From sequence record DRR723986_23114: DNA of 39,139 nt; one strand, written 5' to 3'. The translations under genes and the position numbers were made by a program. The notes under the pieces were generated by a model. That model made no database searches. It was not told the DNA's origin and saw only the letters and a program-made list of their open reading frames with translations. Positions 15,345-24,951 of the stretch are shown here, piece after piece (the first letter of the stretch is position 1; each line of letters opens with the position of its first letter).

Positions 15345-15349
15345 TATTA

Positions 15350-15380
15350 AGTACGATTTATGAAATACGATTTACGAGGA
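15350..15380. repeat. TTTACGA-type heptamer array directly before the aroF start
   Basis: Plus strand AGTACGA TTTATGA AATACGA TTTACGA GGA. Confidence 0.8.
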
Positions 15381-15880: not shown

Positions 15881-16660
15881 TCAATTCACCACTGATTGAA
15901 TGTAATTCTGGATATCTTCACTCAGATTTTTCGAATCTTTTATTGTCTTGATGAAAGCCGAACCTATAATGGCTCCATTACTATAATTGGAAGCGGTGGT
16001 AAATGTTTCCGAATCTGAAATCCCAAATCCAATTAATCTAGGATTCTTAAGATTCATAGCTTTTACCCGCTCGAAATATGCAATCTGCTCCTCGGTGATT
16101 CCTGCCTTCGCACCTGTGATGCTATGTGAAGAAACCATGTAGATAAAGCCAGAGGTATTTTCGTCTATCTCTCTAATTCGCTTTTCGCTGGTTTGAGGTG
16201 AAATAAGAAAGGTATTGACCAAGCCATACTGCTCAAACAACTGCTTATAATCATCCAAATATTGCTGCATAGGTAGGTCAGGCAAAATCAAACCATCCAC
16301 TCCGACTTCTTTGCACTTTTGGCAGAAAGCCTCCATTCCGTACTGCATAATTGGATTGAGATAGCCCATCATCACTACTGGAATATGGATTTTGGCACGA
16401 AAACCTCTCAGTTGCTCAAAGATCTTTTTCAATGAAATCCCGTTTTCCAGCGCAATCATATTGCTATCCTGAATAGTTGGTCCATCCGCCACTGGGTCTG
16501 AATACGGCACGCCAATCTCAATAATATCAGCTCCTCCAGCCTGGGCAGCCTCCATGATCGGCATCGTATCTTCCAATGCCGGAAAACCTGCAGTGAAGTA
16601 GATTGATAATACTCTGGAGTCCTTTTCTTTAAATAATTTATGTATTCGGTTCATTTGCAT
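15881..16660 (-). CDS. trpA: Tryptophan synthase alpha subunit (start at 16660 or 16654)
   Basis: IEIGVPYSDPVADGPTIQ, MGYLNP, PDLP, IGFGIS and IIGSA. Confidence 0.97.
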   Translation of the reverse strand: MQMNRIHKLFKEKDSRVLSIYFTAGFPALEDTMPIMEAAQAGGADIIEIGVPYSDPVADGPTIQDSNMIALENGISLKKIFEQLRGFRAKIHIPVVMMGYLNPIMQYGMEAFCQKCKEVGVDGLILPDLPMQQYLDDYKQLFEQYGLVNTFLISPQTSEKRIREIDENTSGFIYMVSSHSITGAKAGITEEQIAYFERVKAMNLKNPRLIGFGISDSETFTTASNYSNGAIIGSAFIKTIKDSKNLSEDIQNYIQSVVN

Positions 16661-16981
16661 TTACGATTTAGGATATTGGATTTACGAGCGCCTCTTTAAA
16701 ATTGAGACTTTTTCCCATTCCAGCATCAACTATTTTAGTTCAACCCTTTCAGGGTTGGTATTCAATTTTAAAATTTCTTTCTCATGGGTTGCCCCCATGG
16801 CTAATCTTGGTTAACCCCTTTTAAGGTTAATAGTGAAAGGTTCGTCTCAGGTTTCGGTCACTTCATTATTCAGCCTTCAACATTCTTCATTCACTATTAT
16901 TTTGTTTAGGAAAAGCATGAATTATACGATGACGATTGAAGTTCAAAATGTCCTCGTAAATCCGATATCATAAATCCCAAA
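16660..16981. repeat. trpB-trpA spacer bounded by inverted heptamer arrays
   Basis: 16660-16688 TTTACGA TTTAGGA TATTGGA TTTACGA G versus the reverse complement of 16953-16981, TTTGGGA TTTATGA TATCGGA TTTACGA G (25/29). Confidence 0.85.
16741..16830. repeat. REP-like palindrome cluster
   Basis: CAACCCT-TTC-AGGGTTG, CATGGG-TTGCC-CCCATG and TTAACC-N8-GGTTAA. Confidence 0.65.
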
Positions 16982-18160
16982 TCAATACTGCCCCCATTTA
17001 ATATAAGTGTCCAGATCCTTATCGCCTCTTCCTGACAAGTTGATCACAATCACATCATCTTTGGAATATTCAATCAAGTTTAATGCATGTATCGCATGAG
17101 CAGATTCGATTGCTGGGATTATCCCTTCCAATCTACTTAACTCAATTCCTGCAGCCATTGCATCTTTATCCTCCACTGCTACGAATTCACCTCTTCCTAC
17201 ATCAAATAAATGAGCATGAACAGGACCGATTCCAGGATAATCCAATCCAGCAGAAATAGAATGTGGCTCTACAACTTGCCCGTCCTCTGTCTGCATCAAA
17301 ATCGTCTTTGATCCATGCAAAACACCTGGAGTTCCAAGAACAGTAGTTGCGGCTGATTTCCCAGACAAAACGCCCAGACCAGCAGCTTCCGAAGCAACTA
17401 AGCGAACTTGCGGGGTATTATAATAGTGATAAAAAGCACCAGCAGCATTTGATCCTCCACCCACACAGGCAATCACGATATCCGGATTTTCTGTTCCTTC
17501 TTTCTCTTTGAGCTGCCATTTGATTTCCTCCGAAATCACGGATTGAAATCTGGCCACCATCTCTGGATAAGGGTGCGGTCCTACTACCGATCCAATGATG
17601 TAATGTGTATCCACAGGGTTATTGATCCAAGCTCGCATAGCTTCGTTTGTAGCATCTTTGAGTGTTTTCGAACCCGAAGTAGCAGGCACAACTGTAGCTC
17701 CCAAAATCTTCATCCGCTCCACGTTTGGATGCTGACGTGCGATATCTATTTCGCCCATGTATATGGTACACTCCATCCCCATCAGCGCACAAACTGTTGC
17801 TGTTGCCACACCATGTTGACCCGCTCCGGTTTCTGCGATGATTCGCTTTTTCCCAAGCTTCTTCGCCAAGATGATCTGACCTATGGTATTGTTGACTTTA
17901 TGAGCTCCGGTATGACAAAGATCTTCTCGCTTTAAATATACTTTTGCCCCGTACTTTTCTGAAAGTCTAGAAGCAAAATACAAAGGAGTAGGCCTGCCTA
18001 CATAGTCTTTCAGCAATCCTCTGAATTCATCCTGAAACTCCTGCGAAGCCATGATTGACTCGTAGTTTTCTTTCAGCTCTTCCACGTTTGGGTGCAACAT
18101 TTCGGGGATATAAGCTCCTCCAAATTTGCCGTAAAAACCCTTTTCATCTACTTTGATCAT
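16982..18160 (-). CDS. trpB: Tryptophan synthase beta subunit
   Basis: [12 protein letters not shown] (PLP lysine), [22 protein letters not shown] and NLSGRGDKD; start moved to ATG 18160. Confidence 0.98.
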
Positions 18161-18163
18161 AAT

Positions 18164-18212
18164 TCTATAGTTGATGGCTGATAGACCATGGACCATGGAC
18201 TACCAACTATGG
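18164..18212. repeat. Head-to-head heptamer hairpin in the trpF-trpB spacer
   Basis: Transcript TAG TTGGTAG TCCATGG TCCATGG TCTATCA GCCATCA ACTATAG; outer ATAGTTG pairs with CAACTAT. Confidence 0.7.
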
Positions 18213-21360: not shown

Positions 21361-21384
21361 ATAATTTTATCGTTTTAATAGGTA

Positions 21385-21424
21385 ATTCAGGTTGAAAGGT
21401 GGCAAAGTCGAAAAGTGGTAAAGT
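21385..21424. repeat. Octamer array, downstream arm of the four-helix-bundle cassette
   Basis: Transcript ACTTTACC ACTTTTCG ACTTTGCC ACCTTTCA ACCTGAAT. Confidence 0.85.
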
Positions 21425-21463
21425 CCACTTATCCCCAACCCTTGCAATCCATTCCGTTTTACT

Positions 21464-21832
21464 CTATTCTTTCTTATTTTTCAAATAGGTCATTAAAGCT
21501 TTAATCTGCCTTGACAAGACAATTAACTCTTCTTTTAATTTTAAATATGTCTCTTCCGAAACTCTGTTTACTTTAACTAATAGTGCTAATTGACTTCTTA
21601 ATTCACCTGCTGATCCCTTCGCATAGCCTAGAAATCTAATGAACTGAAGCTTATTGTTGTATTCAAATCCTTCGGCTATATTATTCGAAATCGATATTGC
21701 ACACCCAATTAATTGATCTCTAGATTTGTAGTCGCTTTTGAGAGGTACTTGATCAGAAAGAGAATAGATCTCTACTCCAATCTCAATTGCTTTTTGCTAA
21801 ATGTGTAATTCTTCAAAACTGTTAGCCTTCAT
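21464..21832 (-). pseudogene. Four-helix-bundle protein (23S rRNA IVP/TIGR02436-like) with an in-frame TAG at codon 12
   Basis: Hand translation: MKANSFEELHI*QKAIEIGVEIYSL...DQLIGCAISISNNIAEGFE...FIRFLGYAKGSAGELRSQL...LMTYLKNKKE*. The TAG at 21797-21799 replaces the W of the family's 'F..L..WQKA' motif. Confidence 0.9.
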
Positions 21833-21871
21833 ATTCAAAGATTTATATCAAATATTTTCAAGAATACTCAT

Positions 21872-21911
21872 TATACCACTTTACAACCTTCCTACTTTAA
21901 AACCTTCCAAC
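21872..21911. repeat. Octamer array, upstream arm of the four-helix-bundle cassette
   Basis: Transcript directly after the trpE TGA: GTTGGAAG GTTTTAAA GTAGGAAG GTTGTAAA GTGGTATA. Confidence 0.85.
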
Positions 21912-24667: not shown

Positions 24668-24675
24668 TACTTTTG
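24668..24675 (+). promoter_or_regulatory. -7 promoter element of SRP RNA
   Basis: TACTTTTG immediately upstream of the RNA. Confidence 0.75.
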
Positions 24676-24679
24676 CACC

Positions 24680-24760
24680 GGCGGCACGACCAGCTCCTGC
24701 TGAATCCCCCAGGTCCGGAAGGAAGCAAGGGTAGGTGGTTGAGCGGTGCGATGCCGCTTC
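24680..24760 (+). ncRNA. ffs: Signal recognition particle RNA (4.5S, small type)
   Basis: Helix-8 signature CAGGTCCGGAAGGAAGCA; closing stem GCGGCA...TGCCGC followed by a T-tract. Confidence 0.93.
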
Positions 24761-24951
24761 TTTTTTTGCCCTATTTTTTTCTCGGGGTCTCCAATCAGGT
24801 TCCAAATCTTGATTAATCTTCTAACTTTGTTTCTTACAATCAAATCCATTTGGAATCATCCTTCTACATGGCTTATACCCTGTTTTTTATTTAAGACAAG
24901 AATAACAAAGCTTAAGAAAAGAGGTTTCAATACCTATTAAACAATTTAAAC

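Follow-up and report, generated by a model that had tools for sequence, protein, structure and literature searches.

What kind of DNA has come to lie between the two tryptophan synthase genes of an Algoriphagus trp operon, and what might it do to the expression of the second gene? The question is raised by a 39,139-nt stretch of DNA (DRR723986_23114, referred to below as the window), in which the co-directional genes trpB and trpA are separated by a gap of 321 nt, and the spacer at this stop/start junction can fold into a long stem. The original prediction described the spacer as a cassette without cargo, the stem of which joins the trpB stop to the trpA start and thereby makes the insertion nearly neutral, or else marks it for processing. 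We have followed this up by comparing the spacer with those of relatives, by folding it, and by searching for the repeats of which it is made.

The trpB-trpA junction

All features described here lie on the minus strand unless stated otherwise, and coordinates are those of the window. The trpB gene (tryptophan synthase beta; 16982-18196) is an open reading frame that matches Pfam PALP (2.2e-44) and the TrpB proteins of relatives (81-100% identical), and its TGA stop codon occupies 16984-16982, the third base falling within the stem. The longest open reading frame of trpA (tryptophan synthase alpha; 15881-16660; Pfam Trp_syntA, 1.8e-75) begins at an ATG that is specific to the lineage and is supplied by the last unit of the 3' arm of the stem. 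The codon equivalent to ATG 16660 is ATG in just 2 of the 80 relatives used for the start codon comparison, whereas the conserved trpA start codon, at 16654-16652, is ATG in 80/80. The spacer itself is 99% identical in the nearest genome (G001) and is found in six related genomes.

TAnnTTTG is a promoter consensus motif, and a motif scan of the sense strand of the spacer gave no match to it; nor does this strand carry a terminator-like site. The spacer is thus most likely transcribed as part of the trp operon. One terminator-like site lies on the antisense strand, at a hairpin (B2) of the repeat described below, and the sigma-70 model that was also used to scan for promoters is ill-suited to Bacteroidota. 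Contigs assembled from two RNA runs (X18 and X19) are short and lie within trpB and trpA, none of them extending across 16637-16971. A search against Rfam gave no family at the gathering threshold, and in 16600-17040 matches at E up to 10 were sub-threshold noise only.

A stem between stop and start

An inverted-repeat search places the arms of the stem at 16659-16699 and 16942-16982 (41 nt, 78% complementary, with 242 nt between them). In the transcript the 5' arm (16941-16983) is a row of degenerate 7-nt units, TTTGGGA TTTATGA TATCGGA TTTACGA, followed by GAGG...TTGAAC, and at its inner end lies the near-palindrome TTGAACTTCAA (16936-16946). It is opposed by the units TCGTAAA/TCCAATA/TCCTAAA/TCGTAAA of the 3' arm (16658-16701, reading ...CTCGTAAATCCAATATCCTAAATCGTAAATG). 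Folded as an RNA duplex, the arms give 35 pairs (8 GC, 24 AU and 3 GU) and -35.5 kcal/mol, with a z-score of -7.7 against 200 shuffles, and the fold of the whole spacer has a z-score of -4.39, which was equalled by 0/100 shuffles. The stem is real and goes beyond chance.

Its outermost pairs are A16982-U16659, in which A16982 is the last position of the trpB stop codon UGA, and U16981-A16660; in the minimum-energy fold the helix extends further, to 16655, directly before the conserved trpA AUG at 16654. The predicted joining of the trpB stop to the trpA start is therefore borne out in so far as both are found at the foot of one helix in the fold. The ATG to which it joins the UGA, at 16660, is however not the conserved start, which is the one at 16654.

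A family of heptamer arrays

Both arms consist of the 7-nt unit TTTACGA, repeated in arrays that are inverted with respect to each other, and the inner end of each outer array is marked by a near-palindrome, TTGAAsTTCAA. Further arrays of the family (L069, L070, L073, L076, L080, L082, L086, L088 and L092) share the motif TTGARGTTC-N-CTCGTAAATC, and in G001 we counted 27 occurrences of CTCGTAAATC against 15 for the reversed control. Twenty of these 27 sites are accompanied by at least three heptad-like units, and 20/20 are intergenic. Inverted pairs of arms are found four times in this genome, at hisH-hisA, hisA-hisF and trpB-trpA and once on contig 10; the remaining arrays are solo, and five of them end no more than 27 nt from the ATG of an open reading frame. 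The window also holds a solo member of the TTTACGA family, CCTCGTAAATCGTATTTCATAAATCGTAC (L088; 15345-15380), which stops 8 nt before the ATG of DAHP synthase.

Within the outer arms, a second array of 7-nt units (16857-16899) reads TGAAnnn in the sense direction and TTCAnnn on the plus strand. Its TTCA starts at 16862, 16869, 16876, 16886 and 16890 give a periodicity score of 6, compared with a shuffle mean of 0.07 and reached by 0/2000 shuffles, and Tandem Repeats Finder did not report this array at a score of 30. The inverted partner of its first unit is located at 16828-16837 and pairs perfectly with 16890-16899 over 10 nt. The second TTCAnnn array and the short inverted remnant that had been noticed in the loop are hence both genuine.

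Two further candidates from this part of the spacer were discarded. Outer arm and inner array, taken together as a composite left module, are not met with again in combination in the rest of G001, where only the sub-modules are found. An antisense mini-ORF, running on the plus strand out through the trpB-side arm, would encode the peptide MTIEVQNVLVNPIS, and a similar MSIEVQFNLVN is encoded in a his element; it was rejected because in other copies of the motif that frame is interrupted by stops or lacks a start. As judged from these copies, the conserved entity is the DNA motif TTGARGTTC and not a peptide.

A dispersed three-hairpin repeat in the loop

The loop had been taken for non-coding debris, which is wrong because it contains a REP-like element. 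A full copy of a dispersed repeat that we call R1, with hairpins B1, C and B2, was delimited by alignment and folding at 16719-16842 and fills 124 of the approximately 240 nt of the loop; it scores 107.2 bits over model positions 1-124, being itself part of the seed of the model. All three hairpins, which are capped by tetraloops, are predicted by folding, and at 8 of their 17 pairs one or more of 13 sequences carry a compensatory change. The R1 covariance model finds matches in 54 of 61 Algoriphagus genomes, about 590 in total, with a maximum of 28 per genome and 12 in G001. They occur in either orientation, and many form inverted doublets or lie at the ends of contigs; doublets are present in L208 and L174, but the trp spacer has a single, unpaired copy. 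A strict pattern for hairpin B, with four sites in G001, had suggested a low-copy element, a view that was abandoned when the covariance model revealed a large family.

Six R1 copies lie around a 148-aa open reading frame that matches PF01797 (1.8e-23), the family of Y1 (IS200-like) transposases, and since R1 flanks a gene of this kind we regard it as REP/RAYT-like. In at least 16 genomes an R1 match lies no more than about 300 nt away from an orthologue of the transposase (at least 61% identity), and 14 of the 40 genomes that have no close orthologue still contain at least five R1 matches. The putative link between repeat and transposase is one of neighbourhood.

A proposed tolerated mosaic and its probable consequence

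Taken together, we propose, with a probability of roughly 0.6, that the spacer is a mosaic in which small repeat DNA of three or more kinds has accumulated at a once-tight junction, and that it is a passenger whose stem may couple trpA to trpB. Counted in favour of this proposal are the anatomy and SIGNIFICANCE of the stem. The outermost component would be a gene-less hairpin element with inverted TTTACGA arrays as its ends, the inner TGAAnnn array and its 10-nt partner remnant would constitute a second component, and one 124-nt, three-hairpin REP-like copy a third. Within the RNA of the trp operon, folding predicts that the outer arms form an AU-rich stem of 35 pairs that holds the trpB UGA in its foot, with the conserved trpA AUG starting at the first base beyond it. 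Such a stem would owe its existence to the inverted-repeat design of the element rather than to any requirement of the trp operon.

The most likely consequence, we infer, is structure-dependent translational coupling, in which a ribosome terminating on trpB would melt the foot of the helix and free the 10-15 nt before the trpA AUG, with the remainder of the helix keeping the two gene ends together. Coupling that depends on RNA structure is known in MS2 coat-replicase and in rpmI-rplT. The likeness would be that the trpA start region is predicted to pair with the end of trpB and that a terminating ribosome would open this pairing; the modelled trp pairing would differ, however, in deriving from an inserted repeat, in spanning 240 nt, and in being missing in most relatives. 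On this reading the insertion is a tolerated passenger rather than a purpose-built switch: a mosaic of selfish repeats, the stem of which may couple the translation of trpA to that of trpB. As DNA, the spacer is of a fairly ordinary bacterial repeat kind.

The stem in relatives

We folded 78 spacers, that of the window and those of 77 relatives, at minimum energy. The stop-to-start stem is kept in 32/78 and absent from 46/78, and among the stemless spacers are some of 278 to 639 nt with trpB and trpA intact; that of L103 measures 278 nt, and L131 has a spacer of 79 nt that consists of a hairpin alone. A long spacer is therefore tolerated without the stem, contrary to the original prediction, in which the stem is what makes the insertion nearly neutral. 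The duplex z-score is below -3 in 29 of 103 spacers, a set in which some species occur twice and for which the control was a mononucleotide shuffle that may undercount AU-rich arms. For the trp operon itself the stem would matter very little: both genes are undamaged, and some relatives have the stem while others get by without it.

These comparisons also bear on the possibility that the stem and the three hairpins are a selected intercistronic regulator that sets the TrpA:TrpB ratio, either by protection from 3' exonucleases or by providing an RNase III site. REP elements shield upstream mRNA from 3' exonucleases in enterobacterial operons, and the stems of 23S rRNA intervening sequences offer RNase III sites. 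Selection at this locus would be consistent with the persistence of both stem and REP-like core in the clade nearest to the window (L094, L096, L100, L106, L107, L108 and L112; TrpA identity 88-97%), all of these loci having kept a terminal stem, with the pairing of 89% of stem cells across six orthologues, and with the covariation of hairpins B1, C and B2. Copies of R1 are dispersed, however (about 590 matches, 61 genomes searched), so that its covariation reflects the family and not the trpB-trpA locus. Covariation within the stem is weak: the six orthologous spacers show 23 unpaired, that is pair-breaking, cells versus 3 compensated ones, and a count of 3/35 compensated stem pairs is reached by 53/500 shuffles. 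With changes in the arms mostly uncompensated, and with the stem missing from more than half of the spacers folded, we consider a selected regulator unlikely.

Relationship to four-helix-bundle cassettes

The same operon contains, 4.5 kb upstream of the trpB-trpA spacer, a cassette of like design: the trpE-trpG spacer (21361-21911) carries a four-helix-bundle gene between inverted repeat arms of its own, and the open reading frame (21464-21832) has already been interrupted, its codon 12 being an in-frame TAG. The gene belongs to PF05635 (23S rRNA IVS protein/Avd-like), and a full-text literature search found no description of heptamer-armed cassettes of this family. In both spacers an operon stop/start junction is filled by short tandem repeats (7-8 nt) that are arranged as inverted arrays, which makes it conceivable that a PF05635 gene once lay between the TTTACGA arms and was lost, the REP-like element landing in the loop later. 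In line with such decay, all 11 PF05635 genes of G001 lie between short-repeat arrays, and the inner TGAAnnn array is 88% alike over 33 nt to arrays beside one of these genes (L060).

Against this, we searched six-frame translations of 104 trpB-trpA spacers (the window, 25 loci designated by handle and 78 named loci, a set in which certain species are counted twice) with an HMM built from 12 four-helix-bundle proteins, and found a gene or remnant in 0/104 (best E 0.76; best tblastn E 0.12). Conversely, TTTACGA-type arms were present on 0/40 of the PF05635 cassettes examined (11 from G001, 28 from other Algoriphagus and the one in the window), so that no gene-bearing sibling was found either with these arms or at this junction. 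The other paired arms, those of the his operon and of contig 10, likewise form gene-less elements, of 120-150 nt. That the spacer is without cargo was rightly predicted, and 'cargo-less' is apt as a description only; the search for cargo at the same junction of relatives came back empty, which is one half of the outcome named with the original prediction as refuting it, and neither count supports the derivation of the spacer from a four-helix-bundle cassette. We therefore view a decayed cassette as improbable. The trp spacer also differs from these cassettes in that its loop is occupied by a REP-like repeat, and from the intervening sequences of 23S rRNA in that it lies between trpB and trpA, with no rRNA in the window.

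A broader idea would embrace both spacers, and we put it forward tentatively, as somewhat speculative. Heptamer-armed hairpins might be a class of elements, mobile or able to renew themselves, that have become adapted to operon junctions in Bacteroidota poor in Shine-Dalgarno sequences; their arrays would be recopied from each other and so provide a permanent stop-start stem that keeps coupling across any insert. The loop would then act as a landing pad, for four-helix-bundle genes at trpE-trpG and for the REP-like element at trpB-trpA, and solo arrays before start codons might be halves retained as translation leaders.

Turnover of arrays at the junction

The trpB-trpA spacers measure 4 to 321 nt at the 25 loci designated by handle and 60 to 639 nt at the 78 named Cyclobacteriaceae loci, and they are assembled from differing short-repeat arrays, with GTCCGAT, GAATTAT, TTTACGA and GAGACAA among their units. 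The junction is a repeat hotspot. It might accordingly be asked whether the inverted arrays matter at the level of DNA only, where recombination, transposition or replication slippage would act on the cruciform or hairpin that they form, with no consequence in RNA. Quick turnover would agree with this: units differ between species, a contig of run X6, with a loose end at 16656, has a different array upstream of trpA, and the window and G001 do not share the same trpE-trpG cassette despite flanks that are 93-99% identical. The element is nevertheless located inside an operon, shows neither terminator nor promoter consensus and is very probably transcribed, and silence in RNA is hardly expected of a 35-pair stem over a start region, which makes a role confined to DNA quite improbable. 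Chance complementarity in AT-rich intergenic DNA, which AU-rich arms of low complexity with 24/35 A-U pairs might bring to mind, is refuted by the z-scores of -7.7 and -4.39 against shuffles, by the recurrence of the arms as inverted pairs at three other G001 junctions, and by the near-identity of the spacer in G001 and its presence in related genomes.

About a hundred Cyclobacteriaceae genomes constitute a natural series at one junction, with spacers of 4 to 639 nt made of different short-repeat arrays, with and without a stem, and with and without a REP-like passenger. This series allows a direct test of whether repeat-built hairpins preserve translational coupling without Shine-Dalgarno pairing, and it is also suited to the study of array turnover.

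Comparison with known repeat families

STRR repeats have cyanobacterial hosts and consensus units of their own. In filamentous cyanobacteria, hairpins made of such heptamer repeats lie between co-transcribed subunit genes, e.g. hupS-hupL, with transcript stability or translational coupling offered by the authors as guesses at their role (PMC2670836). They resemble the trp element in having tandem 7-nt units, two inverted arrays and a hairpin between two subunit genes that are co-transcribed, in the case of the trp genes probably so. The trp element differs in its occurrence in Bacteroidota (Algoriphagus) and its unit TTTACGA, in the conserved near-palindrome at the inner end of its arms, in belonging to a small family that includes solo arrays before start codons, and in arms that enclose 240 nt with other repeats.

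R1, for its part, has much in common with the REP/REPIN-RAYT systems (PMC3116915, PMC3337134, PMC6006769), being a short, hairpin-forming, multicopy intergenic repeat with copies on the flanks of an IS200-like Y1 gene of low copy number. Inverted doublets, the REPIN form, are frequent in the R1 family, but the trp copy is a singlet inside another element. Its unit of three hairpins and 124 nt is unlike the classic REP, which is one palindrome of 20-40 nt. The R1-linked Y1 protein (148 aa, with DHLH, WQ and YIKNQEEHH) appears to resemble subclass 1.2, which PMC6006769 lists without a REP. For work on REPINs and RAYTs, the interest of R1 may lie in a three-hairpin family tied to a Y1 subclass that reportedly has no REP partner (PMC6006769).

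Organisation of the trpB–trpA spacer

To judge from the closest TrpA loci, the host of the window is an Algoriphagus (Cyclobacteriaceae, Bacteroidota); 91% of sampled words are common to the window and G001, the nearest genome compared, and the two trpB–trpA spacers are 99% identical. The minus-strand operon runs trpE, trpG, trpD, trpC, trpF, trpB, trpA, followed on the same strand by a 150-aa ORF, which matches no family significantly, and by a DAHP synthase gene, and 321 nt separate the TGA of trpB (16982–18196) from the first ATG of the longest trpA ORF (15881–16660). We conclude that this spacer is a hairpin element with heptamer arms and no gene, into which a REP-like repeat has also been taken up, and that it belongs to known kinds of bacterial repeat DNA.

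The geometry first described for the spacer is real and in fact slightly more exact, while its interpretation needs trimming. A repeat search places inverted arms of 41 nt at 16659–16699 and 16942–16982, 78% complementary and with 242 nt between them. In the predicted fold, the arm RNA forms a duplex of 35 pairs (8 GC, 24 AU, 3 GU; −35.5 kcal/mol) whose outermost pairs join A16982, the last base of the UGA, to U16659, and U16981 to A16660. The z-score of this duplex is −7.7 against 200 shuffles and that of the whole-spacer fold is −4.39, with 0 of 100 shuffles folding as well. The second TTCAnnn array reported in the loop was confirmed, with starts at 16862, 16869, 16876, 16886 and 16890 and a periodicity score reached by none of 2000 shuffles, as was the short inverted remnant near it, an exact 10-nt partner at 16828–16837.

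The right arm was said to end at the trpA ATG, and it does reach the ATG at 16660; this is, however, not the conserved start. At the codon aligned with 16660–16658, only 2 of 80 related loci have ATG, those of the two closest relatives, whereas the codon aligned with the third trpA codon of the window (16654–16652) is ATG in all 80. Moreover, the ATG at 16660 is the final unit of the repeat array, where the window reads TCGTAAATG and other sequences read TCGTAAATA or TCGTAAA. This places the conserved trpA start at 16654, and since the annotated-length ORF begins at an array-made ATG, gene callers will probably make trpA two codons too long in this lineage. The shift makes little difference: the helix of the minimum-energy fold runs on through the CAA at 16657–16655, which pairs with the UUG ending in the stop codon, and the conserved AUG would begin right after the helix, at the first unpaired base.

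A REP-like repeat in the loop

The view of the loop as non-coding debris has to be abandoned, as a covariance model (R1) identifies a single, complete copy of a repeat family at 16719–16842. Its three-hairpin core (B1, AACCC-TGAAA-GGGTT; C, CCATGGG-TGCA-ACCCATGG; B2, CAACCC-TGAAG-GGGTTG) is common to the spacers of related species. When 13 copies are aligned (11 from trp spacers, a Mongoliibacter copy and a copy from a different G001 locus), the core folds into B1, C and B2, and 8 of 17 pairs show compensatory changes in one sequence or more. The model has 12 matches in G001 and, with no more than 58 candidates scored per genome, about 590 in 54 of 61 Algoriphagus genomes, the largest number in one genome being 28. 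Both orientations occur, and many copies form back-to-back inverted doublets or sit where a short contig ends, as a dispersed repeat would show.

Six R1 copies surround a 148-aa ORF in G001 that matches the Pfam family Y1_Tnp (IS200-like transposase; 1.8e-23). Within this locus (L208, G001:C1:738500–742500) inverted doublets flank the ORF (1995–2441), the copies lying at 1199–1323, 1392–1518, 1614–1738, 1807–1933, 2365–2491 and 2493–2619. By comparison of coordinates, at least 16 Algoriphagus genomes carry a Y1 orthologue (at least 61% identity) with an R1 match within about 300 nt, and at least five R1 matches are present in 21 of the 21 genomes with an orthologue of at least 60% identity versus 14 of the 40 others, these genomes being related rather than independent samples. 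Together, this shared neighbourhood and the counts argue that R1 is a family of REP-like repeats linked to a RAYT-like gene. Systems of the REP/RAYT kind are well documented in the literature. The motifs DHLH, WQ and YIKNQEEHH and the length of the Y1 protein fit subclass 1.2 of PMC6006769, an assignment by motif likeness only; Table 1 of that paper lists the subclass without a REP partner.

The arm family and four-helix-bundle cassettes

Both arms are degenerate arrays of a 7-nt unit, TTTACGA in one and TCGTAAA in the other, and TTGARGTTC usually sits at an arm's inner end as part of the near-palindrome TTGAAsTTCAA. For CTCGTAAATC there are 27 sites in G001 versus 15 for the reversed control. 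At least three heptad-like units occur at 20 of them, all intergenic; five of the remaining seven lie inside ORFs. Inverted pairs number four in G001 (hisH–hisA, hisA–hisF, trpB–trpA and one on contig 10), and the three outside trp are just 120–150 nt long and hold no gene. Those at hisH–hisA and hisA–hisF (1390–1540 and 2285–2440 of locus L002) are gene-less hairpin elements of about 140 nt each with TTTACGA arms. The other G001 arrays are solo. Of the 20 sites with three or more units, 11 have a same-strand ORF start at most 125 nt downstream and 5 have one at most 27 nt downstream. In the window, a solo TCGTAAA-type array (15345–15380) precedes the DAHP synthase gene; like arrays at four G001 loci (L070, L073, L080 and L088), it has TTGARGTTC ahead and stops 8–27 nt short of the next gene's ATG. 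Such solo arrays may represent retained halves of hairpin elements, now acting as translation leaders.

As a description, the term "cargo-less cassette" used in the original prediction is apt, in that the spacer is gene-less and bounded by inverted arrays like those of the trpE–trpG spacer in the same operon, where a PF05635-type four-helix-bundle ORF is flanked by inverted arrays of its own; in G001, 11 of 11 PF05635 genes are flanked by short-repeat arrays. Derivation from a gene-bearing cassette, however, is not supported by the sequences compared. The gene that was to be sought at this junction in relatives was found in none of 104 trpB–trpA spacers, some up to 639 nt long, when an HMM of 12 local proteins was run on six-frame translations (best E 0.76). 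These are the window, 25 handle loci and 78 named loci, all Cyclobacteriaceae with TrpA 52–98% identical, and their species overlap, so that they are not independent genomes. Likewise, TTTACGA arms were seen in 0 of 40 four-helix-bundle cassettes (11 from G001, 28 from other Algoriphagus, where a 29th locus was too short, and one from the window). One pattern-flagged cassette with apparent TTTACGA arms was rejected, as it proved to carry a GTAC-type array. Full-text searching of the literature found no paper linking PF05635 genes to heptamer arrays.

The trpE–trpG cassettes of the window (21361–21911, minus strand) and of the G001 locus L057 (G001:C7:202061–205375) align over just 118 nt (77%); their proteins are about 55% identical and their arm repeats differ, as against identities of 99.3% for the trpG flank and 93.4% for the trpE flank. 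Either the cassette was replaced at a junction that stayed fixed, or it diverged very fast. Codon 12 of the window ORF is an in-frame TAG, at a position where a W is conserved in relatives. A GTACnnn-armed cassette occupies one junction in many species (L209–L217 and L230, from various Algoriphagus), between a gene ending ...LLFGV* and one beginning MYDVIVIGSGPGG; some cassettes are thus old and vertically inherited, arms included.

Stem, coupling and turnover at the junction

That the stem is what makes the insertion nearly neutral is not borne out by the other spacers. A stop-to-start stem, counted where the minimum-energy fold pairs 8 or more of the 20 nt that follow the stop with the 20 nt that precede the start, is present in 32 of 78 spacers (the window and 77 named loci, one having been dropped for an N run) and missing from 46, including spacers of 278, 293, 318, 348, 390, 397 and 639 nt; long stemless spacers are therefore evidently tolerated. 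Duplex z-scores fall below −3 in 29 of 103 spacers, with a mononucleotide-shuffle control that may undercount weak AU-rich arms. Across six orthologous TTTACGA-armed spacers 89% of 210 cells are paired, and a compensated change occurs in 3 of 35 stem pairs, a number reached by 53 of 500 shuffles; another 12 pairs vary solely by pair loss. The stem persists in the nearest clade, with no clear sign of selection on pairing in these alignments.

The sense strand of the 321-nt spacer contains no match to the promoter motif TAnnTTTG and no terminator-like site, and the spacer would be co-transcribed with the trp operon. In the RNA, the stem would form, its foot containing the UGA and its end lying just before the conserved AUG. 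A ribosome ending trpB would open the lower helix turns and free the region before the trpA AUG, the upper helix meanwhile holding both ends close, and translational coupling would be preserved across the 327-nt insert. Coupling by a heptamer hairpin has been speculated on in print for the cyanobacterial STRR between hupS and hupL (PMC2670836). In our view the stem is incidental to the construction of the element as an inverted repeat, and coupling is its consequence, likely yet dispensable. The spacer is more useful as one of a natural series of trpB–trpA spacers in which coupling by repeat-built stems can be tested.

The junction is a hotspot: nearly every species has a short-repeat-array spacer, with units that differ by species and include GTCCGAT, GAATTAT, GGATGAC, TTTACGA and GAGACAA. 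To judge from these, the host junction of the element is one where short-repeat arrays come and go. Of four sequencing runs compared with the window, the two RNA runs gave no contig over the spacer. A contig from the DNA run X6 departs from the window at 16656 and goes on with a different short-repeat array, which fits array turnover among strains. Whole-module tandem duplications are seen in the trpB–trpA spacers of four loci (L112, L160, L156 and L171, the last from Belliella): L112 (Algoriphagus sp. 4150) has two copies of an arm-plus-inner-array module, L160 three 100-nt units in tandem and L171 a 400-nt run of GAGACAA-type heptamers. Elsewhere, the window has an Rfam match to the Bacteroidales small SRP RNA (24674–24764; 69.9 bits) and a partial tRNA (1–59).
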